DNA of 64,000 nucleotides, from the NCBI GenBank assembly GCA_041661795.1, contig JBAZTS010000002.1, positions 36,263 through 100,262 of the forward strand, in the 5' to 3' direction. The first letter of the stretch is position 1; each line of letters begins with the position of its first letter. The translations under genes were made by a program, and so were the position numbers. Below the pieces are notes generated by a model, which saw only the letters and a list, made by a program, of their open reading frames with translations, was not told where the DNA came from and did no database searches. This document shows positions 8,957 to 62,693 of the stretch, piece after piece. The DNA comes from Minisyncoccota bacterium. GTDB taxonomy: Bacteria > Patescibacteriota > Minisyncoccia > UBA6257 > JAGOQP01.

Positions 8957-8967
8957 AAAAGAGAGTA

Positions 8968-9067
8968 TAATGCCTCTTGAGTGAAGTGCCGAGCAGCCCT
9001 CTGCGATGATATCGATAGAGGATTGCCCTTTCGTTTCCCTCCGCCCTCGGGCGGAGGGTTTTGTTTT
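8968..9067 (+). ncRNA. Candidate small structured RNA or leader with its own -10 box and intrinsic terminator
   Basis: TATAAT at 8966-8971, then a locally GC-rich stretch with nested stems (cctct...agagg, gcgatgatatcga). Hairpin ccctccgccctcgggcggaggg (9037-9058) is followed by a T-run. Confidence 0.3.
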
Positions 9068-9175
9068 CATATATGTTTTTTGTTATTATATTAGTGGTGG
9101 TGGGAGAGCACTCACTCATAATAAAAAAACGGAGGTCACCCCCGCCACCATGAAATATAAGGTTCTCATTTAGTT

Positions 9176-10787: not shown

Positions 10788-13350
10788 AATTTTTTCTCCT
10801 CTTGGTTCTTACCGTAAGAGAGTGGTTAAGATAAATGATTTTGAAAAAGAATTGTCTTTGCTCTCTGATGAGGAAATTAAGAATAAATCTCTTAAATTAA
10901 AAGAGGGTTTTTCCGGTGATCAAGAATATCTGGAAAACAACCTTGAATTGGCTTTTGCTTTAGTTAGAGAATCCTCCAAAAGAAATTTAAAGCAAAGACA
11001 TTTTGATGTCCAGCTTATTGGAGGTTTGGCAATGTCAGATGGAAAAATAGTTGAAATGGCAACGGGAGAAGGAAAAACTTTATCAGCCACACTGCCGGCT
11101 TATCTTTATGGAATCAGTGGAAAAGGAGTTCATGTTATTACTGTCAATGATTATCTTGCCAAAAGAGACGCTGTCTGGATGGGACAGATATATGATTTTT
11201 TAGGATTAACAGTTAGTTGTTTAGTTCATGACGGGGCGTATGTGTATGATTCTAAATATACAAATGAAATTCAAAGTGAAGAAGTGGCAGATGAAAAAAG
11301 AGATGTTGTTGGGGGTTTTAAAGTAATTCAAGAGTTTTTGAAACCAATATCAAGAAGAGAGGCCTATTTGTCAGATATAGTTTATGGAACTAACCACGAG
11401 TTTGGTTTTGATTATCTTAGAGATAATTTGGCTTACAATTCTAAAAATCAGGTCCAACGAGAGCATTATTTTGCTATTATTGACGAGGTAGACAGTATTT
11501 TAATAGATGAAGCCAGAACTCCTTTGATTATTTCAGCTCCAGACGTTGAAGCGGCTCAATACTACAAGGTTTTTGCCAAAGTAGTTAGTTCTTTGGAGAT
11601 TGAAAAGGATTATACAGTTGAAGAGAAAGATAGATCGGCCGTTATGACAGATGATGGTATTGCCAAGGTGGAAAAAATGCTGAATATAGAAAATATTTAT
11701 GATGCTCAATCTGCTTCCCTAGTTCACTATCTTGAAGAATCTTTAAAAGCCAAAGCTCTTTTTAGAAGAGACAGGCATTATGTTGTTAAATCCACTCCTT
11801 CTGGCGAGGGAGAAATTATTATAGTTGATGAATTTACCGGTCGCTTAATGCATGGAAGAAGGTATTCTGGGGGACTTCACCAGGCCATTGAAGCCAAAGA
11901 GGGGGTGAGAATTCAAGAGGAATCAAAAACGTTTGCTCAAATAACTATACAAAATTATTTTCGTCTTTATGAAAAAATAAGCGGAATGACGGGAACCGCC
12001 AAAACCAGCGCTGAAGAATTTAGGAAGGTTTACGGATTGGAAGTTGCTGTTATTCCATCCAATAAGCCCAGAGTAAGAAACGATAAATCGGATTTGATTT
12101 TCAAAACAAAAGAATCCAAATATCAGGCCATCGTGGGTGCTATAAAAGAAATGGTTGAAAAAGGCCAACCGGTTTTAGTTGGCACAACATCAATAGATGA
12201 GAACGAACTTTTATCCTCATATTTTTCCAATGCGGGAATAAAACATGAAGTGCTTAATGCCAAAAACCACGAAAGAGAGGGAGAAATAATTGCTCAGGCC
12301 GGAAGGTCGGAAGGCGTAACTTTAGCCACCAACATGGCTGGAAGAGGAGTGGATATAGTTTTAGGAGGAAATCCTCAAGATGTTTTGGATGCGCAAAAAG
12401 TTAAAGATGCCGGAGGACTTTTTGTTTTAGGAACTCAAAGAAATGAAGCCAGAAGAGTTGATAATCAGTTAAGAGGGCGCTCGGGAAGACAGGGGGATCC
12501 CGGAGAAACACAATTTTTTCTTTCTTTGGAGGATGATATGTTAAGAATTTTTGGAGGAGACAGAATCAAGTCAATGATGAATAGAATGAATATGCCCGAT
12601 GACGTTCCCATAGAATCATCTTTAATCGGAAAAGTAGTGGACGAAGCCCAAAAGAAAGTTGAAGGAATGAATTTTGATATCAGAAAACACCTGTTGGAAT
12701 ATGACGATGTTTTAAACAAACAAAGAAAAGCTGTTTATAGGAAAAGACAAAATATCTTAGAAAGGTTAGAAAAAGGGGAGTTGGAAGATGTTTTAAAAGA
12801 ATTGATTTTAGACGTCCTTAAATTTATTTTTTCAAATCCAACCAAGGATTTGGATTCTATAAAACAATGGTTTGAAGAAGTCGGGTTGGTTAGTAAAGAA
12901 GAAAAAGACAGTTTTAACGTTGAACAAGTGGAAAGCTCAATAAATCAGGGAGTGTTGGATGAATTTATTCTATCTAAAATAAATAACGTCTGTCAGGACC
13001 CGCAAGTTGGATTAAAAATACTTGGGTCCTTGGACGGGTTTTGGACTAATCACTTGGAAAATCTGGAGGCCTTATTGGAATCGGTAAGGATGAGAGCTTA
13101 TGGTCAAAAGGACCCACTGGTTGAATATAAAAGAGAAGGCCATCAGCTTTTTAAGGATTTAATAATTAACGCTCAAGTTTGGGTTGTCTCTAATGTTTTT
13201 AAGGAAATTCAAATCAATCCCAACAAAAATGTTTCTCAGAAATCTTTAGATACGATATACGATATACGAAATACGGATTCCAAATTAGGCCGTAATGACC
13301 CTTGTTATTGCGGAAGCGGTAAAAAATATAAAAAGTGCCATGGAAAATAA
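10765..13350 (+). CDS. secA: Preprotein translocase ATPase SecA
   Basis: MATGEGKTL Walker A, IIDEVDSILIDEARTPLIIS, TNMAGRGVDI, and the C-terminal zinc motif CYCGSGKKYKKCHG. Confidence 0.97.
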   Translation: MMTSILDKIFSPLGSYRKRVVKINDFEKELSLLSDEEIKNKSLKLKEGFSGDQEYLENNLELAFALVRESSKRNLKQRHFDVQLIGGLAMSDGKIVEMATGEGKTLSATLPAYLYGISGKGVHVITVNDYLAKRDAVWMGQIYDFLGLTVSCLVHDGAYVYDSKYTNEIQSEEVADEKRDVVGGFKVIQEFLKPISRREAYLSDIVYGTNHEFGFDYLRDNLAYNSKNQVQREHYFAIIDEVDSILIDEARTPLIISAPDVEAAQYYKVFAKVVSSLEIEKDYTVEEKDRSAVMTDDGIAKVEKMLNIENIYDAQSASLVHYLEESLKAKALFRRDRHYVVKSTPSGEGEIIIVDEFTGRLMHGRRYSGGLHQAIEAKEGVRIQEESKTFAQITIQNYFRLYEKISGMTGTAKTSAEEFRKVYGLEVAVIPSNKPRVRNDKSDLIFKTKESKYQAIVGAIKEMVEKGQPVLVGTTSIDENELLSSYFSNAGIKHEVLNAKNHEREGEIIAQAGRSEGVTLATNMAGRGVDIVLGGNPQDVLDAQKVKDAGGLFVLGTQRNEARRVDNQLRGRSGRQGDPGETQFFLSLEDDMLRIFGGDRIKSMMNRMNMPDDVPIESSLIGKVVDEAQKKVEGMNFDIRKHLLEYDDVLNKQRKAVYRKRQNILERLEKGELEDVLKELILDVLKFIFSNPTKDLDSIKQWFEEVGLVSKEEKDSFNVEQVESSINQGVLDEFILSKINNVCQDPQVGLKILGSLDGFWTNHLENLEALLESVRMRAYGQKDPLVEYKREGHQLFKDLIINAQVWVVSNVFKEIQINPNKNVSQKSLDTIYDIRNTDSKLGRNDPCYCGSGKKYKKCHGK

Positions 13351-19477: not shown

Positions 19478-20668
19478 ATGAAATATCTTAGAAATGTCAA
19501 AATAGAAAAGATAAGAAACAAAACCTGCGTTTTAAGGTTGGGTTTGGATATAAAGGATGGTGAGTTAAAAAATTCGTTGAGAGTTATAAAATCTATCCCG
19601 ACACTCAAATTTCTATTAAAAAACGACTGCAAAGTAGTGATAATTTCACATCGAGGTAGACCTCAAGAGGGGAAAGAGGAAAGTGAAAAGAGGAAAGTGA
19701 AAAGAGAAGAAACTTTAAGATCATTTGTGGAGATTTTTGAAAAACTACTAAAAACAAAGATTAGTTTTGATGACTCTTTTGATTTTAAAAAGATGAGTGA
19801 AAAGATTAAAAAACTTCACTCAAAATCTATAGTTATTGTTGAAAATATAAGATTAGTAAAAGGAGAAAAGGATGATAACGATAAGCTAGGGAGAGAATTG
19901 GCTTCTTTGGGAAATTTTTATGTGAATGATGATTTTTCTACCAGTCACAGAAAAAACGCTTCTTTATGTGCGATAACAAAATTCACACCTTCTTATGTTG
20001 GCCTGCAGTTTGAAGAAGAAATAAAGAATTTAGACAAAGTTCTTAAAAATCAAAGGAAGCCAGTTGTTCTGATTGTAGGGGGAGTTAAATTGTCGGACAA
20101 AGTTGGCGTAATAAAAAATTTCTTAAACAAGGCAGATTATGTTTTGACCGGTGGGGGAGTTTCCAATACTTTCTTTGCTGCTAAAGAAATTCCAGTTGGT
20201 GATTCGTTAATTGATAAAGAAATGATGAAAATGGCAAAAACCTTACTTAAATCAAAAAAAATCATTTTACCCCAAGACGTTAGGATAAAAGGAAAATCTA
20301 TATTGGATATAGGGGATAAAACCATTGAAGAATATAAAAAAATAATAGAAAAAGCAGGGACTATTATTTGGGGTGGACCGTTAGGATATTTTGAGGACAA
20401 AAAATTTGCCAAAGGAACATTTGAAATAGCCAGAGCGATTTTAAAATCAAAAGCTTTTTGTGTTATTGGCGGCGGAGAAACTACAGTCGCCTTTCTTAAG
20501 GCAACTCGCGGACTTACACGGACTTCACGCAGAACTACGCGGAAAACAGTCAGCGTCAGTCAGCGTTCAGTCGGCGTTGGTCAGCGCTTGTTTCTGTCTA
20601 CTGGTGGAGGGGCAATGTTGGAATATCTAGCAGGTAAAAAATTACCGGCTTTGGAAGCGCTTAAATAA
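19478..20668 (+). CDS. pgk: Phosphoglycerate kinase (two in-frame repeat insertions)
   Basis: ISHRGRP, NIRL, VNDDFSTSHR, GGVKLSDK and LSTGGGAMLEYLAGKKLPALEAL. Extra segments are encoded at 19687-19714 and 20504-20587. Confidence 0.93.
   Translation: MKYLRNVKIEKIRNKTCVLRLGLDIKDGELKNSLRVIKSIPTLKFLLKNDCKVVIISHRGRPQEGKEESEKRKVKREETLRSFVEIFEKLLKTKISFDDSFDFKKMSEKIKKLHSKSIVIVENIRLVKGEKDDNDKLGRELASLGNFYVNDDFSTSHRKNASLCAITKFTPSYVGLQFEEEIKNLDKVLKNQRKPVVLIVGGVKLSDKVGVIKNFLNKADYVLTGGGVSNTFFAAKEIPVGDSLIDKEMMKMAKTLLKSKKIILPQDVRIKGKSILDIGDKTIEEYKKIIEKAGTIIWGGPLGYFEDKKFAKGTFEIARAILKSKAFCVIGGGETTVAFLKATRGLTRTSRRTTRKTVSVSQRSVGVGQRLFLSTGGGAMLEYLAGKKLPALEALK
20504..20587 (+). repeat. 84-nt in-frame insertion in pgk made of reverse-complementary 10-nt words (empty version of the lepA cassette arms)
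   Basis: Left words are gacttacacg gacttcacgc agaactacgc. The spacer is ggaaaac. Right words are agtcagcgtc agtcagcgtt cagtcggcgt. It encodes TRGLTRTSRRTTRKTVSVSQRSVGVGQR just before the conserved STGGG. Confidence 0.7.
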
Positions 20669-20673
20669 TTATT

Positions 20674-21522
20674 ATGAAAGATATTGTTGTTTTATATCAT
20701 AAAGATTGCTGGGACGGATTTGGAGCTGCTTGGGCGGCTTGGAAAAAATTTGGCGATAAAGCTCAATATATCCCAGTTGGCTACGAAGAAAATCTACCCA
20801 AGGGTTTAATTAATAAGGAAATATATCTAGTTGATTTTTGCTATGAAGATAATTTAATGAAGAAGATTATTGGTAATAATAAAAAAGTTATAGTTATTGA
20901 CCATCATTTTAGTAGGGAGAAATTTATAAAAAGTGTTAAGGGTTGTATTTATGGAAGAAATAATTCTGGGTCAATTCTCTCTTGGAAATATTTTCATCCA
21001 AACAAAAAAGTTCCCATATTTTTGAAACACATAGAAGACATTGATCTATGGAGTTTTAAATTAAAAGATTCTTACGAAATTATGCTGGCGGTTGATTTAA
21101 AAACTCGCGATTTTAATAGTTGGAGTAAAATTGCCAAAGATTTAGAAGATAAAAAAACAAAAGGTAAATATATAAATGAGGGTAAGATAATTTTAAATTA
21201 TACCAATAGAATCGTAACTGATATTGCAAAAAAAGCTGTTCCTGTTTTGATTGACGGTAAAAAAGCCATGGCGGTTAATGGACCTCATTTTATACATTCA
21301 GAAATAGGAAATGTTTTACACAATAATGAATATCCAATCGGTCTGATTTGGCGAGCGGAAGGAAACAACATTTTTGTTTCTTTGAGGTCAAAAAAAGGAG
21401 GGAAAACAGATGTTTCTAAAATTGCCAAAAAATATGGTGGCGGGGGACATAAATCGGCATCGGGATTCGGGATAAAAAATGGGTTAGGTAAAAAACTTCC
21501 CTGGCGTATTATTAAGCAGTAG
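20674..21522 (+). CDS. DHH/DHHA1 family phosphoesterase (NrnA-like)
   Basis: DCWDGFGAAWAA, VIDHH and C-terminal GGGGHKSASGF motifs. Confidence 0.8.
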   Translation: MKDIVVLYHKDCWDGFGAAWAAWKKFGDKAQYIPVGYEENLPKGLINKEIYLVDFCYEDNLMKKIIGNNKKVIVIDHHFSREKFIKSVKGCIYGRNNSGSILSWKYFHPNKKVPIFLKHIEDIDLWSFKLKDSYEIMLAVDLKTRDFNSWSKIAKDLEDKKTKGKYINEGKIILNYTNRIVTDIAKKAVPVLIDGKKAMAVNGPHFIHSEIGNVLHNNEYPIGLIWRAEGNNIFVSLRSKKGGKTDVSKIAKKYGGGGHKSASGFGIKNGLGKKLPWRIIKQ

Positions 21523-22030: not shown

Positions 22031-22073
22031 TTTTAGCTTTGACTTTTTCGATGTTGAGTTGTATTATCTTAAA

Positions 22074-22424
22074 AGATAAGTGAGTGATTGCCCTGACATT
22101 TGTTGGGGAGGAAAGTCCGGACTCCCATCTCCGACGTAACGTCGGAGTAAACGTATTCGCTAACAGCGAACTATCGCAAGATAAGAGGTGCGAACAGAGA
22201 CGAGTCCTAATGGAAACATTAGGGGTGAAACGGTCCCGACGCCTATTTCGGGTTAGGGACTCCGACATCCGCAAGGATCGTCGGAGCTAAATCCTTGCGG
22301 GGTGCAAGACCGTATCCGCCCAGGGCGGGTGAGTCGCTTGAACCTGAGAGTAATTGAAGGTCCAGACAAATAATCACTATCCCGACGTAACGTCGGGACA
22401 CAGAATCCGGCTTATAGCTTATCT
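22074..22424 (+). ncRNA. rnpB: RNase P RNA (bacterial type A)
   Basis: GGAGGAAAGTCCGGACTCC near the 5' end and ACAGAATCCGGCTTA near the 3' end. P1 pairs agataag with cttatct. GC-rich island followed by a terminator. Confidence 0.9.
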
Positions 22425-22506
22425 AAACATATCAAGAATCTCTCCTTAACGGGGGGATTTTTGATTGATTTATTAAGGGTTTTTTGATACTTTTAACAAG
22501 TTGCTT

Positions 22507-38168: not shown

Positions 38169-39272
38169 CTATTTTAGATTCTCTATTATAGCTATCTCAA
38201 AGGGCACCAAGGGGAAAGGATTGTATTTCATTTGGGAGTAGGCGGTGATGAGCGCTTTTATAAGTTTTATCTGCTCGTCCGTATCTATTTTAGCCGAATG
38301 TTTTTTTATTTCTTTTATTTGGCTTTCGGCCAATTCCTTTTCAAATATCTTTTCCAGTTCCGGATTAAGATGTAAAGAAAGAACCCTTCTTAAATATTCT
38401 GTCAGATCTTTGTTAAATTGAAAAAGATTGTATCCCTGACTGTTTATTTCGTATAAAAATTCCAGCGACTTTTGTAAGTCCTTTTTTATGACCAAATCGG
38501 CCATTTTTATTGTTTTTAGAAAATCAACTTTTCCCAAGATGCTTTCCACGTATTCAACGGTAATATTCTTGCCCTTCATGGAAACAATCTGGTCAAAAAG
38601 AGATTCGGCATCTCTTAAACTTCCTTCAGCTAAAAAGGCAATCATTTCCAAAGCTTCTTTTTCGTATTCTACTTTTTCTTCTTTGGCGATAAATGAAAGT
38701 TTTTTTATAATCTCCTGTAGTGTCAGCTTTCTAAAATGAAATCTCTGGGTTCGGGAAACAATAGTGGGAGGGAGCTTGTCGTATTCGGTGGTGGCTAATA
38801 TAAAAACGGCATGGGCTGGCGGTTCTTCTAAAGTTTTTAAAAGAGCGTTAAATGCCTGTGGAGTGAGCATGTGAACTTCATCTATGATAAAGATTTTGTA
38901 TTTAAGATAAGAGGGGAGTGTTTTTATGTTTTCTTTGAGATTTCTTATTTCATCTATTCCTCGGTTGGAAGCGGCGTCAATTTCAACGACATCCAAAGCT
39001 CTGCCTTCTTCAACTTGTAAACAGGCGTGACATTCTCCACAGGGCTCTCCTTGCTTGGCAAAGTTTTCGTCCTCTTGTCTTTTCTGGCAGTTAATTATTT
39101 TGGAAAAGATTCTGGCGATAGTTGTTTTGCCGGTTCCTCTTGAACCGTAGAAAAGATAGGCATGAGAAATTTTACCTTCCTTAACTGAATTTTGAAGTAT
39201 GGTAACCGTATTTTCCTGACCGTAAATATCAGCAAGTTTTTTTGGTCGGTATTTTCTATAAATAGCTAACAT
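38169..39272 (-). CDS. dnaX: DNA polymerase III subunit gamma/tau (short form)
   Basis: YRPKKLADIYGQ, HAYLFYGSRGTGKTT, the zinc module CGECHACL, IFIIDEVHMLT and SRTQRF. Confidence 0.93.
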   Translation of the reverse strand: MLAIYRKYRPKKLADIYGQENTVTILQNSVKEGKISHAYLFYGSRGTGKTTIARIFSKIINCQKRQEDENFAKQGEPCGECHACLQVEEGRALDVVEIDAASNRGIDEIRNLKENIKTLPSYLKYKIFIIDEVHMLTPQAFNALLKTLEEPPAHAVFILATTEYDKLPPTIVSRTQRFHFRKLTLQEIIKKLSFIAKEEKVEYEKEALEMIAFLAEGSLRDAESLFDQIVSMKGKNITVEYVESILGKVDFLKTIKMADLVIKKDLQKSLEFLYEINSQGYNLFQFNKDLTEYLRRVLSLHLNPELEKIFEKELAESQIKEIKKHSAKIDTDEQIKLIKALITAYSQMKYNPFPLVPFEIAIIENLK

Positions 39273-39278
39273 ATCAAT

Positions 39279-39309
<31 letters not shown>

Positions 39310-39325
39310 TAAAGAGCTATGAAAT

Positions 39326-39923
39326 AAAAAAAGCCCGCCGGTGTCTTCCGAGGAAGTCCTGGCGGGGTGGAACAGGTGGTGCGACCTTAGCTCACTCGGT
39401 GCTGTCGAGTTCGCTCGCCCGATATACTCTCCGGGTGATACGAGAGCTCGAATCTGCCGAGACGTGACGCGTGGTCACTTTTTGCTAAGGTTTTTTGGGG
39501 TGCTGCTCCTCTTCCTGTTCGGTACTTTCTAAGAACGGTTCCCACACCGTTCTCGCCGGCGAGCTTAGCTCGCGCAGGGTAGAGGCGCCTCCTAAAGGAG
39601 GCAAAACATGAGTACAAATTCGGAATTGGATTTTTGTGAGTTTCCGGACTCACTATCTCGTTTGGTGCACCTCCCGAGAAGTCCTTTTCCTTCCACTTAT
39701 TATTGGGCCAGTTTGAGATCAGCGGTGGACACTCAAACTGTTTGCGTGCTTTCACCGAGCTTGCCGGATTTACTCGGATCTTTGGTGAGATGGCGCAACC
39801 CCACAGTTTTGACCTCCCTCAGCTGCGCGCGCAACTGAGTTGTCAGCTCACCTAGTGACAGAGGCCCCCTTTTTGACCGTTTTTTCTTCTTGGTCCGGAA
39901 GGGTTTCCGTGCTACATTTTTAT
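39326..39923 (-). ncRNA. GC-rich ~600-nt transcription unit of unknown identity (large structured RNA candidate)
   Basis: It runs from a near-consensus promoter (39930-39957) to a strong terminator (cccgccagg...ccggcggg plus U7). It is dense in local hairpins (gcgagc-tta-gctcgc, gcctcc-taaa-ggaggc, cagtttgag...ctcaaactg, gtgagt...actcac). Only composition-type ORFs are present. Confidence 0.4.
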
Positions 39924-39929
39924 GCCTGT

Positions 39930-39957
39930 ATTATACTCCTTTTGTTTTATTTGTCAA
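39930..39957 (-). promoter_or_regulatory. Sigma-70-type promoter TTGACA-16-TATAAT driving the GC-rich unit
   Basis: The minus strand reads ttgacaaataaaacaaaaggagtataat. Both hexamers are perfect. Confidence 0.6.
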
Positions 39958-54654: not shown

Positions 54655-54842
54655 GCCAAAACTGACAACCCTGTATATCCTCTCAAACAAATGAAACAAA
54701 TATCTCGCTTTGTCTTGAACTCGTATCTGCTATACTCACACACTCAAGACACTAAAAGCTCATATTTGCTTTATTTGTTAGTGTTCGGACATACGGGTTG
54801 ATATTTAGCTAATAATAGCCCTAAATCTAGTGTTTGTTAATA

Positions 54843-54871
54843 TTGACTTATTAGTAATAATATGATATACT
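54843..54871 (+). promoter_or_regulatory. Sigma-70-type promoter TTGACT-17-TATACT for GC-rich island A
   Basis: ttgacttattagtaataatatgatatact. The AT-rich promoter abuts the GC-rich transcribed region. Confidence 0.55.
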
Positions 54872-54962
54872 CAAAACAAGTTTCGAAACCGCTTCACTGC
54901 CGTGAACAACACTACAGAAAGAGCGGTCGGAGCACTGCTCTTTCACAGAAAGGGGAACTTCG

Positions 54963-55361
54963 ATGAGTGGGATCGCTTGGTTTTTCGAGGTGTTCGCTCT
55001 GCTGTTTTTCGTGGGGACTCTGGGCGTTGCTTTCATCGGACGCCGCATCCTCAAGGCGGAGCAGGAGTCGTCGGTTCTGATGTCTTTCCTCCAGATCTGC
55101 AGTGGAGCGCTCTTCATCTTCTACGTTTTCGGACTGGGTCAACTCATGGCTCTGTCTGGACTGGAAGGTGCAAGGGCGCCCCGGTGGCTGATTCCGGGCA
55201 CCTACATCACTCTCACCATCTTCAGCGCGTTGACTCGGCTGGCTCTTCCAAGGTGGGGCAGTGACAACAAAGCGATGCAACTCTGGAGTGTCGTCAGCGT
55301 CCTGACGTTCCTACTCGGCACGTTCTGCCTCGGGGCGTACTCGTCCAACTACTTCGAGTAG
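54963..55361 (+). CDS. GC-rich 132-aa four-TM membrane protein (compositionally foreign island A)
   Basis: AAAGGGGAA SD. Four hydrophobic helices (WFFEVFALLFFVGTLGVAFI, LQICSGALFIFYVFGLGQLMAL, GTYITLTIFSALTRLAL, LWSVVSVLTFLLGTFCLGAY). Own terminator. Confidence 0.65.
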   Translation: MSGIAWFFEVFALLFFVGTLGVAFIGRRILKAEQESSVLMSFLQICSGALFIFYVFGLGQLMALSGLEGARAPRWLIPGTYITLTIFSALTRLALPRWGSDNKAMQLWSVVSVLTFLLGTFCLGAYSSNYFE

Positions 55362-55386
55362 GTCTCCTTCTTCAGCTCTTCAACTG

Positions 55387-55420
55387 GCGGCGTCTCTCAC
55401 GAGGCGCCGCACTGCTTTTT
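55387..55420 (+). terminator. Intrinsic terminator of island A
   Basis: gcggcgtctc-tcac-gaggcgccgc followed by a T-run. Confidence 0.7.
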
Positions 55421-55467
55421 ATATGGTTATAAAATTTATATAAATTTCCCCGTCAATATAAATCCGC

Positions 55468-56607
55468 TTAATCGGTATATGTCCGTGACCGACGTAGTCG
55501 GTGGTATCGTATAGCAAATCTGTGGGCTTCGTTTCTTAACGAAAGTAATGTATTTTTAACATCTTCGGGGATTTGGCTCAAGCTGATAGGGGATTTTGAA
55601 TAGGGACTGTAAATCAATCCTTTTGTTTGTGATCTTTTATATTTCTTGCCAACATCGTTAATTAACTTACCATTACAATTAGAACGATCGTTGTAATTGT
55701 AATGGTGTGGATTATTACCCACAGATTGCAATTTGCCCACGTTTAGTTTTGCTAGAGCTATCATCGGAATCTTAATTGTTTTGAGTTGTGAGATTTGTGA
55801 TTTTCCTCCGTCAATGATAATTAAATCCGGATATTTCCATTCTTTGTGGTTAAGGCGTCTTTCTATAATTTCTTTTATTGAAGCCGGGTCATTGGCTCCT
55901 TTTATCGTTTTTATTTTAAATTTTCTGTAAAGATTTTTATTAGGTTTATTTCCGATAAACGTTACCATTGAGCCAACTGACAAACTACCTTGGGTATTGG
56001 AAATGTCGTAGCACTCAATATGTGTTTTTTCTCCATTATATAAACGAAGAAAAGTTTTTAATCCATTAACCACCTGGATGTATTTTTTTACTTCGATATT
56101 ATGAGCGGAACATAACCCTAAGTGATAATACAAGCACGGCTTTTCCGGTTTATTTTTACATGTGCGATAGGGGAATATTCTTCTGATTATCAATAAGAGA
56201 TGCTTAATCTCTTTTGCGTCTACAAACGGGCCAACAAAATCGGCTTTAAATTTTTTTGTTTGGTGTGTTAAAAGCACTCTGGGGTACTTTTCGTCGGTAA
56301 AAGCTATATACAAAAAATCCTTGTCATCTTTAAGTTCAATGTTATATTTTGGCTGATACTGTCTAACTAATTTTCTTTCTAAAATCAAGGCGTCTTTTTC
56401 AGATGGGGTTTCTATAAAATCTAAGTCAGCTACTTGTTTGTAAAAATTAATAGAAGCATTCTCTTGTCTAGAAAAATGCGATTCTATTCTCTTTTTTATA
56501 TTAATAGCTTTTCCGATATACAAAATCTTCTCATTCTTATCTTTGAAAATATATACTCCCGGTTTCTTAGGAAGTGCTTTTATCTTATTCTTCAGGATTG
56601 TTTTCAC
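55468..56607 (-). CDS. uvrC: UvrC-like excinuclease subunit, short form (GIY-YIG plus RNase-H-like endonuclease region; no UVR or HhH2 domains seen)
   Basis: PGVYIFKDKNEKILYIGKAINIKKR (GIY-YIG), IECYDISNTQG, PDLIIIDGGKSQ, IALAK and RNEAHRFAI. 379 aa versus about 600 aa canonically. Contains the palindrome at 55669-55706 in frame. Confidence 0.8.
   Translation of the reverse strand: MKTILKNKIKALPKKPGVYIFKDKNEKILYIGKAINIKKRIESHFSRQENASINFYKQVADLDFIETPSEKDALILERKLVRQYQPKYNIELKDDKDFLYIAFTDEKYPRVLLTHQTKKFKADFVGPFVDAKEIKHLLLIIRRIFPYRTCKNKPEKPCLYYHLGLCSAHNIEVKKYIQVVNGLKTFLRLYNGEKTHIECYDISNTQGSLSVGSMVTFIGNKPNKNLYRKFKIKTIKGANDPASIKEIIERRLNHKEWKYPDLIIIDGGKSQISQLKTIKIPMIALAKLNVGKLQSVGNNPHHYNYNDRSNCNGKLINDVGKKYKRSQTKGLIYSPYSKSPISLSQIPEDVKNTLLSLRNEAHRFAIRYHRLRRSRTYTD
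55669..55706. repeat. Palindromic element copy a (inside uvrC, in frame)
   Basis: accattacaattagaacgatcgttgtaattgtaatggt. On the minus strand it encodes part of NNPHHYNYNDRSNCNGKL. Confidence 0.85.
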
Positions 56608-56644: not shown

Positions 56645-56682
56645 ACCATTACATTTAGAACGATCGTTCTAAATGTAATGGT
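56645..56682. repeat. Palindromic element copy b
   Basis: accattacatttagaacgatcgttctaaatgtaatggt is a perfect 38-nt palindrome. It ends 2 nt from the stop of the 56685-57245 gene. Confidence 0.9.
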
Positions 56683-56684
56683 GG

Positions 56685-57245
56685 CTAGATTTTCTTTATA
56701 GTCCCCATTTTTCCTATTTCCAATATCTCCACGTATTCGTTTATTCTCATTTTTTCTAAATCTTCCACAAACTTTTTAGGAATTTTTATTTTTCCTATCC
56801 AGACACTTTTTTGCAACATTTCAAATCCAATATTCTTTACAGCTGATCTTAACCAAGCCCTCTTCCTTTTAAATTTTTCCGGAACATCAAAAGCTATCAA
56901 AATAACATTGTTTCCGGCTTCTTTCTTATAATCTAAAGCTGGAGATTGATTATTGGATACCCGGTTAATAAGTTTTTTGGCTTTTTTAGTAATCTTGATA
57001 ATCAACCCCTCTTTTTGTTCTATGAGTCCGTCTTTCTTAAGACGATAAATCATTACCCTATATCTGTTTCTTATTTTTTCTTTCTCTGTTTTGATAGTCT
57101 CATTTTTAGTGCCGATTCTATTTAAATTGTCTCTTAATATAGACGTTGAGCCCCAAGAGAATAAAAACGCTTCAAAAGCATTAGAGTATGTTTGTCTATC
57201 TACATTATTTAGAAAACTTATTGTTTCTCTATTTCTTGCCCTCAT
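56685..57245 (-). CDS. PaaX-like / Cas2-fold-like putative regulator (wHTH plus ferredoxin-like C-terminal domain)
   Basis: wHTH-like RVMIYRLKKDGLIEQ. The C-terminus VILIAFDVPEKFKRKRAWLRSAVKNIGFEMLQKSVWIG resembles the PaaX C-domain or Cas2 beta-alpha-beta core. Bracketed by palindrome copies b and c. Confidence 0.55.
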   Translation of the reverse strand: MRARNRETISFLNNVDRQTYSNAFEAFLFSWGSTSILRDNLNRIGTKNETIKTEKEKIRNRYRVMIYRLKKDGLIEQKEGLIIKITKKAKKLINRVSNNQSPALDYKKEAGNNVILIAFDVPEKFKRKRAWLRSAVKNIGFEMLQKSVWIGKIKIPKKFVEDLEKMRINEYVEILEIGKMGTIKKI

Positions 57246-57269: not shown

Positions 57270-57306
57270 ACCATTACAATTAGAACGATCGTTCTAATTG
57301 TAATGG
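57270..57306. repeat. Palindromic element copy c
   Basis: accattacaattagaacgatcgttctaattgtaatgg lies 24 nt upstream of the 56685-57245 gene start. Confidence 0.9.
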
Positions 57307-57417
57307 AGGGAGTATATATGATTAAGAATATTAAATAATTATCATAGAGTTATTATGATTATAGATTGATTTTATCGTTTTAATTAAAGAGTGCCTTATA
57401 AATTAGCACGGACCGCT

Positions 57418-57570
57418 TTATGGGCGGTCCGGGATGGGTGGAGCGGGTGCGGGCTTGACCACTTTGGCCACGAGGCCGATTAATATGGTCAGCATTGAAA
57501 CGGGTACTACGGTGGCGATGATGACGGACGATTCCACCACCACCAGAGACCACTTGACTAGGTAGTGCAT
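57418..57570 (-). CDS. GC-rich island B gene 4: 50-aa hydrophobic protein (not in the ORF track)
   Basis: AAAGGAGGU lies 4 nt upstream of the ATG. Product is MHYLVKWSLVVVESSVIIATVVPVSMLTILIGLVAKVVKPAPAPPIPDRP. The start overlaps the gene 3 stop. The stop codon sits in the loop of the ggaccgc...gcggtcc hairpin. Confidence 0.55.
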   Translation of the reverse strand: MHYLVKWSLVVVESSVIIATVVPVSMLTILIGLVAKVVKPAPAPPIPDRP

Positions 57571-57689
57571 TCAACCTCCTTTCTTCTGAGAATCTTGGTG
57601 ATCCACAGATAGAGGTTGTATCCTGTTTGAATAACGTGGGCCATCTTTTGGCCCAGTATTGTCGTCCGATGAAACGTTGTTGTAGACAT
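57558..57689 (-). CDS. GC-rich island B gene 3: 43-aa protein
   Basis: AAAGGAGA lies 4 nt upstream of the ATG. Product is MSTTTFHRTTILGQKMAHVIQTGYNLYLWITKILRRKEVECTT. The longer 100-aa track ORF in this frame lacks an SD. Confidence 0.45.
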   Translation of the reverse strand: MSTTTFHRTTILGQKMAHVIQTGYNLYLWITKILRRKEVECTT

Positions 57690-57703
57690 CACGTCTCCTT
57701 TGG

Positions 57704-57949
57704 TTAGGCGATGGCGCCGGGGTATTCTTCGGAGATCTTCTCGATCTCTTTTTCCTCTTTCTTCACTTGGTCTGTGAGCACAAGGAAGAAAAAGATGATG
57801 GCCATGATTCCCACAAGAGTGGCAAAGGCCCATGAAAAGCTCTTGGGGAGTTGGAACCATCGTGATAAGTGATATCCTCCAAAAGTGAGAATTACCACGG
57901 CCACGGTCGCTCCAACTTTACGGAGCAAGTTGAGTAGTCCCGGGAACAT
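57704..57949 (-). CDS. GC-rich island B gene 2: 81-aa two-TM protein with acidic/basic tail
   Basis: AAGGAGGAG lies 4 nt upstream of the ATG. TM segments are VGATVAVVILTFGGY and WAFATLVGIMAIIFFFLVL, followed by the tail KKEEKEIEKISEEY. Confidence 0.65.
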   Translation of the reverse strand: MFPGLLNLLRKVGATVAVVILTFGGYHLSRWFQLPKSFSWAFATLVGIMAIIFFFLVLTDQVKKEEKEIEKISEEYPGAIA

Positions 57950-58193
57950 TACTCTCCTCCTTTTTGGTGTACATCTTTCGAAGTTTCTCCTGTAGAGCGT
58001 TGAGCCCCGTGAAGACCAGGGCTCCGGTCAGAAACCCGATACAAGCCAACGATCCTCGGATCTCCAATCCTGGAGGCAGTGGAACTCGGTCTGCCCATAG
58101 GACCGTGAAGAAACAGGAAGCAGCAGTTGAAAGGCCAACGAAAGTGAACCAAACCACTCTTGCGATCAACTCCAGAACTTTTCCGATTTTCAT
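57918..58193 (-). CDS. GC-rich island B gene 1: 91-aa two-TM protein with charged tail
   Basis: GAGGAGGA lies 6 nt upstream of the ATG. TM segments are VVWFTFVGLSTAASCFFTVLW and LACIGFLTGALVFTGLNAL, followed by the tail QEKLRKMYTKKEES. The layout is holin-like. Confidence 0.65.
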   Translation of the reverse strand: MKIGKVLELIARVVWFTFVGLSTAASCFFTVLWADRVPLPPGLEIRGSLACIGFLTGALVFTGLNALQEKLRKMYTKKEESNVPGTTQLAP

Positions 58194-58280
58194 GCTCTGA
58201 TCCTCCTCTGTTTTTCACATTATAATAATCATTGAATTTTGTCCATGTTTGATTTAGAATAACCCTTTGGTTGGCATTTT

Positions 58281-61193
58281 ATGAAAAAAGAGAATCAATC
58301 AATAGAAATAATCGGGGCGCGTGTCCACAACTTAAAAAATGTGGATGTTTCTATACCTAAAAATAAATTGGTAGTTGTTTGCGGAGTTTCTGGTTCCGGA
58401 AAATCATCTTTAGCTTTTGATACTTTATACGAAGAGGGACAGAGAAGATATTTAGAAAGTTTGTCCTCTTATGTCAGACAGTTTTTAGGAGGATTTAAAA
58501 AACCAGATGTTGAAAAAATAATCGGCTTGTCTCCGACTATCGCCATCAACCAAAAAAGCGTTTCTTCCAATCCGCGTTCAACTGTGGGCACAATAACTGA
58601 AATTTACGATCATCTCCGTCTTCTCTTTGCTCGAGTTGGAATTCCTCATTGTCCAAATGACAACATTGTCATAACCGCTCAGACACCACAAGAAATCGCC
58701 AATAGAATTATTGACTTGGCTCATAACAACGAAATTGTTTTGCTGGCTCCAATAATCTCGGGGAAAAAGGGTCAGCACCAGGCGATTTTTGACGAGATTG
58801 AGAGGGGCGGATATTCACAGGTCAGGGTTGATGGGTATTTTTATCCCATTGCCGAAGCCAAAAATATTTCTCTGGATAAAAATAAAAAACACGATATCGA
58901 AGTTACCGTAGGTAAGTTTTTTACTGGAGTAAAAATAGATATCCAAAGAAATATATCCAAAATGGAAAGAGAGGCATTGAAAAACAAAAATAAAAAGATA
59001 GATAAGTTGATAAAAGAAGAAAAGTTAGAACTTTTAGAAAACATCAGAAAAGGACTGGCCATGGGGCAGGGAAATATTGTTGCTCATACCAAGGGGAAGG
59101 ATTTTTCCTTTTCCGAGAATTATTCCTGTTCTAAATGCGGATTTTCTTTACCCAAAATTGAACCCAGAACTTTTTCATTCAACAGTCCTTTTGGAGCTTG
59201 TAAAAATTGTCAGGGATTGGGAACTAAACTTGAAATAGATTTGGATTTGATAATCAACCCGGAAATCTCTTTGGAAGCGGGAGCTATAAAGCCCTGGTTT
59301 TCTTTAAGCCGTATGGGAAGAAGAGCTCTTGGCGCCAATTGGCAGAGATTTGTTACTGAGACCATTATTAGGGATTCTGGGCTGTCCCCAAGAACTCCTT
59401 TTGGAAAACTTCCCAAAGAAGTCCAGGATAAAATTTTATATGGTGATAAAGAAAATTATACTCATCTTAAAGACGGCGATTGGGAAGGAAAAACTTTATT
59501 TGAGGGAATTATTCCTCGCTTGGAGCGACTTTATTACGAAACTGAATCTGATTTTATCAGACAGGAACTTTCTAAATACATGCTTGAAAAAACCTGTCCC
59601 GTTTGTAATGGGTCGCGTTTAAGAGAAGAAGCATTGGCGGTAAGAGTGGGAGGAAAGAACATTTCTGAATTGACTTCAATGGCGGTTTTGGATTTTGTTA
59701 GTTTTTGCCAAAAACATATTTATGAAAAAATGTCGGAAAATCAAAAAACGGTTGCTGTTTCAATAATCAAAGAAATTTCCACTAAATCAAATTTTTTAAT
59801 TAACGTTGGTTTGGAATATATGAACTTGGGAAGGTCAGCGACTACTTTGTCAGTAGGAGAAAATCAAAGAATCCGCCTGGCTACCCAGTTGGGTTCTGGA
59901 TTGTCTGGAGTGATTTATGTTTTAGACGAACCGACTATTGGGCTTCATCCTCGCGACACTGACCGTCTCATAAAAACATTAAAAGAACTTAGAGATTTAA
60001 ATAATACCGTGATTGTGGTGGAACATGATGAGAGGGTTATAGAAAGCGCCGATTGGGTTATTGAAATTGGACCATTAGCCGGAGAAGAAGGTGGCAAGGT
60101 TGTTTTTGAAGGAACGCCATCAGATTTGAAAAAATCAAAAACGTTAACTGGATTATATTTTGCCGGCAAGAAAAAAGCGCAATCGGGACTTTCTAAAAAT
60201 AATTCTGAAAATAAAGAATTTATAAAACTGTATGGCGCTTCACAGTTTAATTTAAAAAACATAAATCTTTCCATTCCTTTAAAAAAATTTGTCTGTGTGG
60301 CAGGAGTTTCGGGCTCGGGTAAAAGCACGTTAATGTTAGATGTTTTTGCCAAGGCCCTTCAGAAAGAAGTTCTTAGGATGAGCGTGGCTGTAGGTGAATA
60401 TAAAAAACTTGAGGGGGAAAGAAATATAGACAAAGTGGTTATTATTGACCAAAGTCCTATCGGCAGAACCCCTCGTTCCAATCCGGCTACTTATACGGGA
60501 ATTTTTACTCCCATTAGACAATTTTTCACTCGCTTGGAAGAGTCGCAGATAAGGGGATATGGGCCATCATATTTTAGTTTCAACGTTAAGCCGGGAAGAT
60601 GTGAGGCCTGCAGAGGGGAAGGATTTAAAAAGGTGGAGATGTATTTTTTGCCGGATATGTACGTAGAGTGTGAAGTTTGTAAAGGCACCAGATTTTCTCC
60701 CGAGGTTTTGGATGTTAAATATAAAAACAAAAACATTGCTGATGTTCTTTCTATGAGCGTTAAGGAAGCGCTGGCGTTTTTTCACCAGTTTCCTTTTATT
60801 GGCGATAAGTTAAAAATTCTTGATGAAATCGGTCTTGGATATATGAAACTGGGACAGCCGGCGACAACTTTGTCGGGAGGAGAAGCTCAAAGGATAAAAC
60901 TTTCCGATGAACTTGCCAAAAGAGCTACAGGAAGGACTATTTATATTTTAGACGAACCGACTGTGGGACTTCACTTTGAAGACACAAAAAAACTTTTATA
61001 TATTTTGCGCTCGTTGGTTCTAAAAGGTAATACGGTTTTAGTTATAGAACACAATCCTGATGTTTTAAAAGAATCGGACTGGATTATTGAACTTGGTCCC
61101 GAAGGTGGAGACAAGGGAGGAAAAATAATTTTTGAGGGAACACTGGAAGAGATAAAAAAGAAAAAAACAATGACGGGGAAGTATTTAATATGA
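58281..61193 (+). CDS. uvrA: Excinuclease ABC subunit A
   Basis: Two ABC modules ([15 protein letters not shown] and [10 protein letters not shown]; LSGGEAQR signatures) plus zinc modules (CSKCGF...[14 protein letters not shown]...CEVCKG). Confidence 0.97.
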
Positions 61194-61411
61194 AGATAAT
61201 AATCATCGTAAAACCAAATAAAAAAGAAAATAAGGTTGTGAAAATAGGAGAGAACATTTTTGAAATTTATACGAATCAACCGGCTAAAGAAAATAAAGCC
61301 AATTTGGATATTATTCAACAAATGTCCAAGTATTTTAAAGTATCAAAATCAAAGGTTTCTATATCTTCCGGATTAAAGTCAAAGAAGAAAATTTTGGAAA
61401 TAAATATATAA
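61190..61411 (+). CDS. DUF167 (YggU-like) protein
   Basis: IIVKPNKKENKV...NQPAKENKANLDII...SKVSISSGLKSKKKILEI matches the DUF167 pattern. Confidence 0.8.
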   Translation: MKIIIIVKPNKKENKVVKIGENIFEIYTNQPAKENKANLDIIQQMSKYFKVSKSKVSISSGLKSKKKILEINI

Positions 61412-61941
61412 AAAAAGGGGGCTCCCGGTGTTGCTGGGAGCCCAAAGTGCGGTAAGGAGGTCAATGTACGATGCGGTGCCTGCCGTGCGTCGCTTCGCTC
61501 GTTCGGGTCTTGGTGGTTCAGATCAGGGCCAGTCGTGCCCGAAAACTTAACTTTCTGGCCCATTGCTTCTCGGCACGCATGGTTTCTCCTTGCATGGATT
61601 TTTGGTCCACGCAGCTCTGCCCTCAGCGCTTGACGGTGGCCTCGTCGTTGGTGCGGTGGTTGTTCTGACGCTGTTGCATGGGATTTCTCCTCGCGTGAAC
61701 GTCGTCGGTTGTTGGTGCTAGCTATGGCTCAAGTCAAGCTTTCTTTTCGGTGAGCTTGACGAGCAGTGCTAGCGCCTGTTCTGGGTTTCGTTTTTTATCG
61801 GTATAACCTTCACAAGGTTATACCAGGGTTTCCTTCCTGATTGGCGGTCAAGAAGGTTGTTTAATCATCCAGCATTGTCCTAACTAACGGAACGGCGGTT
61901 CGACGTCCACGTGCATCGCTTTCCTCCTTATGTAGTTTACT
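61410..61941 (-). ncRNA. GC-rich ~530-nt transcription unit (large structured RNA and/or SD-led micro-ORF cassette)
   Basis: Promoter at 61948-61976. Terminator gggctccc-agcaacac-cgggagcccc plus U7. The 5' uaaggagg...cgaugc can pair with the 3' gcaucg...ccuccuua. It contains an 11-bp GUGA-capped hairpin (ggtataacctt gtga aggttatacc). No ORF over 25 aa has a plausible start. Confidence 0.4.
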
Positions 61942-61947
61942 TATTTC

Positions 61948-61976
61948 AGGATAAAACAAAAACGGCTATTAGTCAA
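61948..61976 (-). promoter_or_regulatory. Sigma-70-type promoter TTGACT-17-TATCCT for the GC-rich unit
   Basis: The minus strand reads ttgactaatagccgtttttgttttatcct, located just after the SDR stop codon. Confidence 0.45.
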
Positions 61977-61991
61977 ATATTTTTGTGAAAC

Positions 61992-62693
61992 TTACTTTTG
62001 ATGCTGAAACACATCTATTATCAAATTTTGGTCGGGGATAATTTCTTTTTTTAATGCTTTGACAATGACCTGAGCAACTTGATTTGGAGTATGTTTTGGT
62101 TCATGGTCGGGAAAACATGTTTTAAACATTCCAGTATCGGTTGAGCCGGGAGTAATTGTAAAAACGTCTATATTGTATTTGGAAAGTTCGTCTTTTAACG
62201 ACTGAGAAAGATTTATAATCGCCGCTTTAGTTAGAGAATAAATAGAGAGTCCTTCAATCCCGTAAAATCCGGCTCCAGAAGAAATATTGACGATTAATCC
62301 GGATTTCTTTTCTTTCATAATTTCAAGAACCCTTTTTATAACATTTAAAGTTCCTTTGATGTTAACGTCTATAATAAAATTCCAGTCAGGATAATCGGTT
62401 TCTTCAAAATTTTTATTCTGGGCAACAGCCGCATTGTTTACTAAAATATCTATACTTCCGAATTTATCAATCGTTTCTTCAATAACTTTTTCAACATCTT
62501 CTTTTGTTCTTATATCGCCTTGAGTAACTAAAAAATTGGGATTTTTTAAAATCACTTCCGTATCCAAATTATCGGGGATATTAATGGAAACCGTAGAAAC
62601 TTTACATCCTTGGTCAAGCAAGAGTTTGGCTGTTTCAAGACCTATTCCCGACGTTGCTCCAGTTATAAATACAACTTTATTTTTTATGTCCAT
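61992..62693 (-). CDS. SDR family oxidoreductase
   Basis: TGATSGIG, NNAA and the S...YSLTKAA catalytic triad region. Confidence 0.9.
   Translation of the reverse strand: MDIKNKVVFITGATSGIGLETAKLLLDQGCKVSTVSINIPDNLDTEVILKNPNFLVTQGDIRTKEDVEKVIEETIDKFGSIDILVNNAAVAQNKNFEETDYPDWNFIIDVNIKGTLNVIKRVLEIMKEKKSGLIVNISSGAGFYGIEGLSIYSLTKAAIINLSQSLKDELSKYNIDVFTITPGSTDTGMFKTCFPDHEPKHTPNQVAQVIVKALKKEIIPDQNLIIDVFQHQK

Follow-up and report, generated by a model that had tools for sequence, protein, structure and literature searches.

U61, a GC-rich orphan unit downstream of an SDR gene in a Paceibacterota genome: a candidate structured RNA with a predicted 5'-3' lock over its first ribosome-binding site

Introduction

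In the hok mRNA, long-range tac/fbi pairing between the 5' and 3' ends closes the RNA and hides its ribosome-binding site (RBS) until the 3' end is processed. Here we describe a locus for which folding predicts a comparable geometry: a GC-rich unit of ~530 nucleotides (nt), named U61, at about positions 61940-61410 on the minus strand of a 64,000-nt stretch of DNA (the window) from a Minisyncoccota bacterium (assembly GCA_041661795.1, contig JBAZTS010000002.1, positions 36,263 to 100,262), whose UvrA is annotated by NCBI as Candidatus Paceibacterota. U61 is real, reproducible and non-random, it lies outside every described family, and at present sampling it is an orphan of a single species. 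We tentatively read it as a structured RNA of the dual-function type, young and confined to one species, whose micro-open reading frames (micro-ORFs) would be gated at the level of translation. The support for this reading is statistical, and a decaying or neutral gene cassette is nearly as likely.

Other described systems bear on such a locus. Phage morons are autonomous promoter-gene-terminator insertions of deviant GC content that sit between conserved genes and are present or absent among close relatives. Large GC-rich structured RNA classes of AT-rich genomes, such as OLE, ROOL, GOLLD and raiA (the domain of the GC-rich intergenic-region approach), are defined by conservation and covariation over many species. 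RNAIII of Staphylococcus aureus, 514 nt long with 14 stem-loops, carries in its 5' region a small ORF, hld, that is translated late, possibly by way of an interaction with the RNA's 3' end (PMC12612679). A Shine-Dalgarno (SD)-like tract can also stabilise an mRNA without directing translation, as STAB-SD does (PMC4113751).

Results

A stand-alone unit between the SDR and DUF167 genes

U61 is bounded on one side by the stop codon of a minus-strand gene for an SDR oxidoreductase (61992-62693) and on the other by the convergent plus-strand DUF167 gene (61190-61411), which overlaps the end of uvrA (58281-61193), within the chromosomal housekeeping order uvrB-uvrC-uvrA-DUF167-SDR-rmuC-groES/EL. Its GC content is 0.543 at 61501-61800, compared with ~0.30-0.40 over the rest of the window and 35% for the genome, and its transcribed strand is T-poor (19%). 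A preliminary description of the window had reported a GC-rich block without a long ORF, and so it is: the longest minus-strand ORF of the region has 82 amino acids (aa), runs through the terminator and has no Pfam match, and the longest on the plus strand has 65 aa. The same description had considered that the block might be an assembly chimera. The 1504-nt SDR-U61-DUF167 segment is 100% identical in one ENA and two Logan assemblies from different samples, and since four independent assemblies are identical there, a chimera is ruled out. The sequence features that it had listed were confirmed as real and correctly placed, apart from one small error in a hairpin loop; these include the promoter right after the SDR stop, the U7 terminator overlapping the DUF167 stop and three SD-led micro-ORFs, whose coordinates, spacings and peptides were all exact. 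The features of U61 are as follows.

61976-61948, minus: sigma-70-like promoter from a consensus scan, TTGACT (61976-61971), 17-nt spacer, TATCCT (61953-61948)
61931-61912, minus: 5' strand of the closing helix, AUAAGGAGGAAAGCGAUGCA, carrying SD1 and AUG1; present in the minimum free energy (MFE) and centroid structures
61929-61923, minus: SD1, AAGGAGG, ~11 nt from the predicted 5' end
61916-61884, minus: micro-ORF 1, MHVDVEPPFR plus stop, AUG at 61916-61914, 6 nt after SD1
61911-61694, minus: 5' domain, closed by an 11-bp helix of CGUGGACGUCG (61911-61901) and CGACGUUCACG (61704-61694)
61856-61832, minus: 9-bp perfect hairpin in the 5' domain, where the inverted repeats I3, I2 and I11 underlie three hairpins
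61824-61800, minus: 11-bp perfect hairpin in the 5' domain, GUG loop, inverted repeat I2
61760-61733, minus: 8-bp perfect hairpin in the 5' domain
61692-61623, minus: module 2, SD2 GAGGAG (61692-61687), 7 nt, micro-ORF 2 (61679-61623, MQQRQNNHRTNDEATVKR)
61602-61518, minus: module 3, SD3 AAGGAG (61591-61586), 5 nt, micro-ORF 3 (61580-61518, MRAEKQWARKLSFRARLALI)
61475-61453, minus: 3' strand of the closing helix, CGCAUCGUACAUUGACCUCCUUA, inverted repeat I9
61460-61453, minus: anti-SD mimic CCUCCUUA, within the 3' strand of the closing helix and beside the terminator
61443-61410, minus: intrinsic terminator, 8-bp G+C stem, 9-nt loop, CC, then U7 (61416-61410)
61471-61668, plus: 65-codon ORF, preceded by TAAGGAGG at 61453-61460, 10 nt, ATG

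The promoter matches 9 of 12 consensus positions and starts 15 nt past the SDR stop; the predicted transcription start is at ~61940. Such sites are commonplace in AT-rich DNA: six were seen in the scanned 1.2 kb, versus 2.2 expected. All six lie on the minus strand of 61100-62300, and no antisense promoter was found on the plus strand of that region. The promoter of U61 has a counterpart in a relative, the lineage denoted here L091: the first 60 nt past the SDR stop align without gaps (30/60 identities versus 17.4 +/- 3.4 in shuffles, P=0.0004), the -35 and -10 elements stand at identical offsets from the SDR stop in both, and the likeness stops where the cargo starts. Because the promoter is homologous and at the same offset in L091, transcription of U61 is supported. 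These alignments indicate that a resident promoter downstream of SDR serves different cargos in different lineages.

Neither inspection of the sequence nor a terminator scan found a terminator between SDR and U61, and therefore SDR transcripts must also enter U61. At the far end, the arms of the terminator stem are GGGCTCCC (61443-61436) and GGGAGCCC (61426-61419), and the terminator overlaps the stop codon of the convergent DUF167 gene (61409-61411). It was missed by the automatic scan because the scanner allows loops of at most 8 nt. With a promoter-like site and a canonical terminator, U61 has, on sequence evidence, the make-up of a stand-alone transcription unit of the RNAIII type.

A predicted helix closes the RNA over its first ribosome-binding site

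The two ends of U61 are complementary (TAAGGAGG/CCTCCTTA plus GCGATGC/GCATCG(T)), and the proposal of the preliminary description that this complementarity could lock the first SD was borne out by folding. The 20-nt 5' segment forms a duplex of -21.6 kcal/mol (RNAduplex) versus -14.1 +/- 1.9 in dinucleotide shuffles (P=0.002), in which the anti-SD mimic ACCUCCUUA buries SD1 and AUG1. The partition function gives unpaired probabilities of 0.01 for SD1 and 0.00 for AUG1, with 0.47 for SD2 and 0.65 for SD3. As a thermodynamic prediction, then, U61 folds back to hide an RBS in the manner of hok.

Inside the closing helix, the 5' domain is made of 218 nt of hairpins, and ~70% of the U61 RNA lies outside the ORFs. 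The 11-bp perfect stem of this domain had been described as capped by a GUGA tetraloop; the stem is real and the loop is the 3-nt GUG. The folding z score of U61 was -6.05 in one test and -4.2 in a separate control run, in which the scores were 0.0 and +1.2 for two coding stretches and -6.8 for RNase P RNA.

Three SD-ATG modules precede very short ORFs

An SD hexamer followed after 3-9 nt by ATG occurs three times in U61 versus 0.05 times expected, and 0 of 5000 composition-matched shuffles reached three. Module 3 is a direct repeat of the SD-AUG region of module 2 (repeats D3 and D5); because of this the conservative count is two independent events, for which P(>=2)=0.002. The minus strand of the whole window holds only nine such modules, three of them in U61 and four in a second GC-rich unit, U57, described below. 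The stretch of module 2 is C/A-rich and weakly paired. Micro-ORF 3 has an in-frame upstream AUG at 61595, which gives an extended form of 25 aa, M(QGETM)RAEKQWARKLSFRARLALI.

The three peptides have grand average of hydropathy (GRAVY) values of -0.48, -2.34 and -0.34, and a transmembrane-like stretch is present in none; the ORF3 peptide carries +5 net charges and is hydrophobic at its C-terminus. A family scan of ORF3, of its extended form and of ORF2 padded to the 20-residue minimum matched no family. The closing helix also yields a mirror SD-ATG on the plus strand, ahead of the 65-codon ORF, in which the GC content at third codon positions (GC3) is 0.73, with the third-codon phase in common with the minus-strand ORF2 and ORF3. 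A weak 3-nt GC periodicity runs over 61471-61680 (phase GC 0.73, P ~0.02, post hoc). Paceibacterota are assumed to use the standard genetic code. We considered an alternative code, since the stops in the ORF2 frame from ORF2 onwards are all TGA, and rejected it: the read-through product is of low complexity and enters the terminator.

U61 matches no known family and has no homolog in the collections searched

At gathering thresholds, a scan of the whole window with Rfam 15 found only RNase P RNA and two tRNAs, and a permissive scan of 61200-62200 gave chance-level matches alone (at most 22 bits, E>=1.3). The Rfam families covered include RNAIII, OLE, ROOL, GOLLD, HEARO, raiA, tmRNA, 6S, SRP, riboswitches and introns; the Rfam check that the preliminary description had called for thus leaves U61 outside every known family. 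ARAGORN found no tmRNA. The RNase P RNA, at 22072-22430 on the plus strand, is of the bacterial class A, is full length at 138.8 bits and carries lineage-specific indels relative to the Rfam consensus.

Searches with blastn against phages and plasmids returned no homolog of U61, and blastn and tblastx found no U61-related sequence at the SDR/uvr locus of 11 relative lineages (L004, L087, L088, L091, L097/L105, L106, L107, L110, L111, L112 and L113). The DNA pattern of the terminal helix (AAGGAGG..GATGC, ~438 nt, GCATC..CCTCCTT; 24 specified bases) gave four unrelated chance matches in JGI metagenome contigs and none in IMG/VR, and the exact sequence of the 11-bp hairpin was absent from the IMG/VR viral contigs. 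In exact-cluster look-ups the ORFs of U61 and of the neighbouring islands were singletons, and the plus-strand 65-codon ORF was absent from the protein collection and called as a gene in no assembly there. A literature search found nothing relevant on GC-rich intergenic RNAs in Candidate Phyla Radiation (CPR) bacteria or Patescibacteria.

Two possible kinships were examined and rejected. A recurrent 33-nt blastn match on alphaproteobacterial plasmids covers the ORF2 region and corresponds to 'NRTIKEATVKR' of an IS481-type transposase; the likeness is confined to these 11 residues and was taken as chance (tblastn versus the window, E=0.95). Relatedness of U61 to the L091 145-aa gene, the L097 83-aa gene or the L110 RNA unit, all described below, was likewise unsupported (local-alignment P 0.14-0.73; tblastn E>=0.006 against the 621-nt region alone).

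U61 compared with described systems

In its predicted architecture, U61 resembles RNAIII and dual-function small RNAs such as SR1 and SgrS: a stand-alone unit of ~0.5 kb with many hairpins, in which the RBS of a 5' micro-ORF is paired with the 3' end. Neither in sequence nor by covariance model is it similar to RNAIII or to any other Rfam family. It also differs from RNAIII in having three tiny ORFs rather than a single 26-aa amphipathic toxin, and in lacking both the C-rich UCCC loops aimed at target SDs and the quorum-sensing context; its host is a CPR bacterium. The only anti-SD-like tract in U61 (61460-61453) is predicted to be occupied by its own SD1.

The closing 5'-3' geometry over the RBS is, as predicted, that of hok/sok-type mRNAs, but the peptides are not hydrophobic (GRAVY -0.34 to -2.34) and no homology was found. 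Of the hallmarks of type I toxin-antitoxin systems, U61 shows neither a small hydrophobic toxin ORF nor, in the promoter scan of 61100-62300, a sign of an antisense RNA gene. Like the STAB-SD 5' stabiliser of Bacillus thuringiensis cry3A, U61 has an SD-like tract near its 5' end, UAAGGAGG, ~11 nt from the predicted end, and UAAGGGAGG stands at the same relative place in the unrelated L110 unit; unlike STAB-SD, the tract of U61 is followed 6 nt on by an AUG, and folding predicts that it is paired, not free.

What U61 has in common with OLE, ROOL, GOLLD and raiA is that it is a long intergenic region, rich in GC within an AT-rich genome, that has promoter and terminator and is predicted to fold strongly. 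Conservation and covariation are what define those classes, whereas no homolog of U61 was found, none of the Rfam models fits it, and its helices are near-perfectly Watson-Crick and strand-symmetric. Finally, U61, two other cassettes of the window (U55 and U57) and the cassettes of relatives fit the moron pattern, although they occupy a chromosomal housekeeping locus and not a prophage, and U61 carries no gene.

The space downstream of SDR is hypervariable in relatives

The nearest UvrA among 5.8 billion proteins is 78% identical to that of the window. Across the relatives, the space downstream of SDR is hypervariable: three have nothing in it, four have cassettes for small orphan proteins that are unrelated to one another, and one has an ORF-less RNA unit different from U61.

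L087, UvrA 78%: empty, 7-nt gap, SDR abuts UvrA
L088, UvrA 76%: empty, 38-nt bidirectional terminator
L107, UvrA 75%: empty, 22-nt gap
L091, UvrA 75%: 145-aa orphan protein; shares the promoter of U61 and not the cargo
L097-L105 (Ca. Wolfebacteria), UvrA not compared: cassette of 62% GC, 83-aa membrane protein
L106, UvrA 76%: what looks, in the sequence alone, like a small membrane-protein ORF; gap without a called gene
L111, UvrA 77%: 114-aa membrane protein plus a PEP-utilizers gene
L004, UvrA 72%: without SDR; 83-aa CxxC orphan protein in the corresponding DUF167-RmuC gap
L110/L109, UvrA 75%: different ORF-less A/C-rich unit, ~320 nt
L112 and L113, UvrA 75% and 73%: end of SDR rearranged or not reached; nothing homologous to U61; other parts of the locus with GC-rich orphans

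The preliminary description had looked to conservation of the helices and micro-ORFs in relatives as a test of its proposals. In a sense the outcome goes against them: the whole element is absent from every relative examined.

The L110 unit (4478-4800, minus; identical in L109 at ~8405-8725) comprises a TTGACT...TATTAT promoter, the 5' tract UAAGGGAGG, a 5-codon ORF led by an internal GAGGAGG-7-AUG, and a strong terminator. It folds with z=-4.2, matches no Rfam family and has no significant similarity to U61. The L097 cassette, directly downstream of SDR (8700-9130, minus), carries, besides its own promoter and a terminator, AGGAGA-6-ATG and an 83-aa membrane ORFan of two helices. Occupying the space that holds U61 in the window, it is the coding counterpart of U61.

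Other uvr spaces of the relatives hold lineage-specific orphans too, often without a Pfam match and of up to 67% GC. GC-rich orphan ORFs without a Pfam match occur around uvrC/uvrA at L112 6676-7225, L113 51-875 and L106 3376-3925 (59-67% GC in loci of 41-45% GC), and an orphan ORF of 51% GC lies at L091 8751-9525 in a locus of 35% GC; the cargo differs in every lineage. L088, a relative of 37% GC, has at 20101-20800, between GGDEF and SEC-C genes, a 700-nt island of ~54% GC with no called gene. Short G+C hairpins are numerous in this island, which also contains a bidirectional terminator and matches no Rfam family at gathering thresholds.

Other GC-rich islands in the window

The window holds four GC-rich islands, U39, U55, U57 and U61, among which we found no sequence homology or shared motifs. 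Three of them, U55, U57 and U61, lie in consecutive intergenic spaces of the order uvrB | uvrC-paaX-like | uvrA-DUF167 | SDR. The other three islands are the following.

~39325-39957, minus: U39, perfect TTGACA-16-TATAAT promoter (39957-39930), ~600 nt at 50-55% GC, terminator at ~39365-39330
~54840-55430, plus: U55, between uvrB and uvrC, promoter-like site and terminator
~57380-58240, minus: U57, between the paaX/cas2-like gene and uvrA, terminator near 57400-57440

U39 has no convincing ORF and folds with z ~-4 on both strands. It matches no Rfam family even at E<5, and the view of the preliminary description that U61 is not similar to this 39.3-39.9 kb unit was upheld. Its palindromic GCCUCCUUUAGGAGGC tract can be read as an SD on either strand; in the plus-strand reading it precedes a 76-codon ORF at 39608. 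A tandem heptamer, (GTATAAA)x4, lies at 39279-39310, between the U39 terminator and the start of the gene at 38169-39272.

U55 encodes a 132-aa membrane-like protein (54963-55361) with a GC3 of 0.74, versus 0.27-0.33 in the neighbouring genes; in a word-indexed search of 5.8 billion proteins it matched only itself, and it has no Pfam or PHROG match. In U57 four ORFs of 91, 81, 43 and 50 codons follow one another, every one of them led by a hexamer SD; a search of 1.84 billion representative proteins gave no real homolog of ORF1. Elsewhere in the window strong hexamer SDs ahead of real gene starts are rare. Both coding cassettes, U55 and U57, also fold better than shuffles (z -3.1 and -3.5). 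A viral origin of the cassettes was considered and rejected, four other cassette proteins being without a match to PHROG or to viral contigs.

U61 has several properties of this class, being a lineage-specific GC-rich promoter-to-terminator unit with hexamer SDs in a uvr/SDR intergenic space. It departs from the class in lacking SD-led ORFs longer than chance: those of U61 have 10, 18 and 20 codons, versus 43-132 in U55 and U57.

Palindromes are a further feature of the uvr region. A 36-bp perfect palindrome, CCATTACAATTAGAACGATCGTTCTAATTGTAATGG, occurs in three copies (0-2 mismatches) at 55670-55705, 56646-56681 and 57271-57306, on either side of uvrC and of the gene for the PaaX/Cas2-like regulator (56685-57245); these copies are possible operator sites. 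The same ACGATCGT core, with different arms, recurs in long palindromes just downstream of DUF167 in L004 (~9285-9330) and L091 (~13295-13335).

Discussion

The preliminary description offered two readings, that of a large structured RNA and that of a cassette of micro-peptides controlled at the RNA level, and our analysis partly supports both. The reading we put first, with due reserve, is that U61 is a young, species-specific dual-function RNA. In its favour we count, besides the SD-ATG statistics and the closing helix, the GC content of 54% maintained in a genome of 35% GC, the presence of promoter, body and terminator together, and the existence of a second ORF-less RNA-like unit, that of L110, in the same space. 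Several results weigh against it. The -10 element of the promoter, TATCCT, is weak. The plus strand folds as well as the minus strand (z=-5.3), G-U pairs make up only 8 of the 132 predicted in the minus-strand MFE structure, and the stems of the main hairpins are perfect; this DNA-palindrome-like signal is not typical of an old RNA and suggests young DNA palindromes. Because both strands fold well and G-U pairs are few, the fold signal amounts to strand-symmetric Watson-Crick self-complementarity and does not identify a strand. The ORFs, of 10, 18 and 20 codons, compare with a random mean of ~25 codons, and the peptides are hydrophilic or cationic and without a match to a known family. Lastly, no homolog was found anywhere searched, the copies of U61 at hand are all 100% identical, and neither the structure nor the peptides are backed by covariation or codon-level conservation.

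The strongest competitor, which taken by itself we regard as doubtful, is that U61 is a decaying or neutral cassette, a remnant or a not-yet-functional relative of the GC-rich small-protein cassettes represented by U55 and U57 and by the orphans of 83 to 145 aa in relatives. Transcribed behind the resident promoter, it would have no selected function, and its SD-ATG modules and hairpins would be leftovers. Such an origin agrees with the fast turnover of the space, empty in L087, L088 and L107 and filled by unrelated orphans in L091, L097, L106, L111 and the L004 gap, and with the strong-SD style that U61 has in common with the coding cassette U57. It agrees as well with ORF lengths equal to the random expectation, with the weak GC periodicity at 61471-61680, as in former coding sequence (compare the GC3 of 0.74 in U55), and with the observation that the coding cassettes also fold better than shuffles (z -3.1, -3.5) and are themselves ORFans (U55 and U57 ORF1, among 5.8 and 1.8 billion proteins). 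However, stops occur at a random rate in the frame after ORF1, with no trace of a recently broken long ORF, and membrane proteins, which are typical of the cassette class, could not have been encoded by a strand so poor in T (19%). Nor does decay predict that a 3' anti-SD should specifically mask SD1 and AUG1 (P=0.002), and the high GC content has not eroded.

It seems unlikely that U61 is a plain polycistronic mRNA for micro-peptides of 10, 18 and 20 or 25 aa, such as the cationic amphipathic ORF3 peptide, in which RNA structure would only tune translation. The three well-spaced modules with strong SDs, the relative accessibility of SD2 and SD3, the net charge of +5 and hydrophobic C-terminus of ORF3 and the presence next door of U57, a four-ORF small-protein operon of the same build, all speak for it. 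But the ORFs are as long as in random sequence, ORF3, extended ORF3 and padded ORF2 match no family, nothing is conserved in relatives, and ~70% of the RNA, including the 218-nt hairpin domain at the 5' end, is not ORF.

Very unlikely, in our judgement, is a product of the other strand, namely the 65-aa protein of 61471-61668 translated from the mirror SD TAAGGAGG on transcripts that read through from uvrA-DUF167. The ORF is intact behind a strong SD, its GC3 of 0.73 is like that of the U55 ORF, and the hairpin after DUF167 has no U-tract on the plus strand, which makes read-through possible. Yet a 65-codon ORF has a chance of ~0.10 in this composition, the 10-nt SD-ATG spacing is long, and the Cys/Arg-rich product is typical of a shadow frame. 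The protein is called in no assembly and absent from the protein collection, and our scan found no plus-strand promoter or terminator. The GC periodicity cannot assign the strand because its phase is common to this ORF and to the minus-strand ORF2 and ORF3. Hardly credible at all is a mobile-element remnant, a miniature inverted-repeat transposable element or an insertion sequence fragment in which inverted repeats at the termini, of 8 and 6 bp here, by chance resemble an SD and an anti-SD. The ORF2 region does give a blastn match of 33 nt to transposase genes of the IS481 type, but that likeness spans 11 residues (tblastn E=0.95 versus the window alone), U61 is single-copy in the window, nothing related occurs at the SDR/uvr locus of the 11 relative lineages, the terminal-repeat pattern gave chance matches in metagenome contigs and none in viral contigs, and no target-site duplication was seen.

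If U61 is the dual-function RNA that we tentatively favour, the following mechanism can be proposed. U61 would be cargo in a promoter-equipped, hypervariable space downstream of SDR, most likely transcribed from the resident promoter and in addition by read-through from SDR, to give a GC-rich RNA of ~530 nt with its 3' end at the strong intrinsic terminator. SD1 and AUG1 would be locked by pairing with the anti-SD mimic next to the terminator, while the two duplicated internal SD-AUG modules would be comparatively exposed. Access of ribosomes to the 5' end would need opening of the 5'-3' helix or processing of the 3' end: AUG1 should be exposed only when the 3' strand is removed or when CCUCCUUA is mutated to GGAGGAAU, and the exposure should be lost again upon a compensatory 5' change. 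The SD-like tracts may also bind 30S subunits and so stabilise the RNA, as STAB-SD does. Transcription of U61, translation of any of its micro-ORFs and any regulatory role are what we infer. For the present we file U61 as an unverified member of a broad known kind, that of lineage-specific stand-alone structured or dual-function RNA units.

The context may outweigh U61 itself. Different orphan units, often far richer in GC than the genome, occupy the intergenic spaces around uvrABC/SDR in each lineage examined, and at least one such space has a positionally conserved promoter; these hypervariable, promoter-equipped spaces are a more interesting lead than U61 and bear on how genes are acquired or invented in streamlined symbionts. 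A wider and rather improbable proposal is that the Paceibacterota/Wolfebacteria clade keeps promoter-equipped 'landing pads' between housekeeping genes (uvrB|uvrC|uvrA-DUF167|SDR), in which GC-rich orphan cassettes with strong SDs are exchanged or born de novo, independently from lineage to lineage. U61 and the L110 unit would be RNA-only or proto-gene members, their 5'-3' SD lock blocking spurious translation.

CPR bacteria have tiny genomes, and to our knowledge their regulatory RNAs and small proteins are almost wholly uncharted. Should U61 prove to be decaying cargo, it would be a caution that in such genomes a GC-rich, well-folding intergenic island with a promoter and a terminator is not automatically a conserved non-coding RNA. 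If functional, it would be the first CPR example of an RNA of ~0.5 kb with RNAIII-like or hok-like logic, in which a 5' RBS is gated by the RNA's own 3' end; and the landing pads, if they exist, would represent an unrecognised system of cassette turnover or a nursery of genes.

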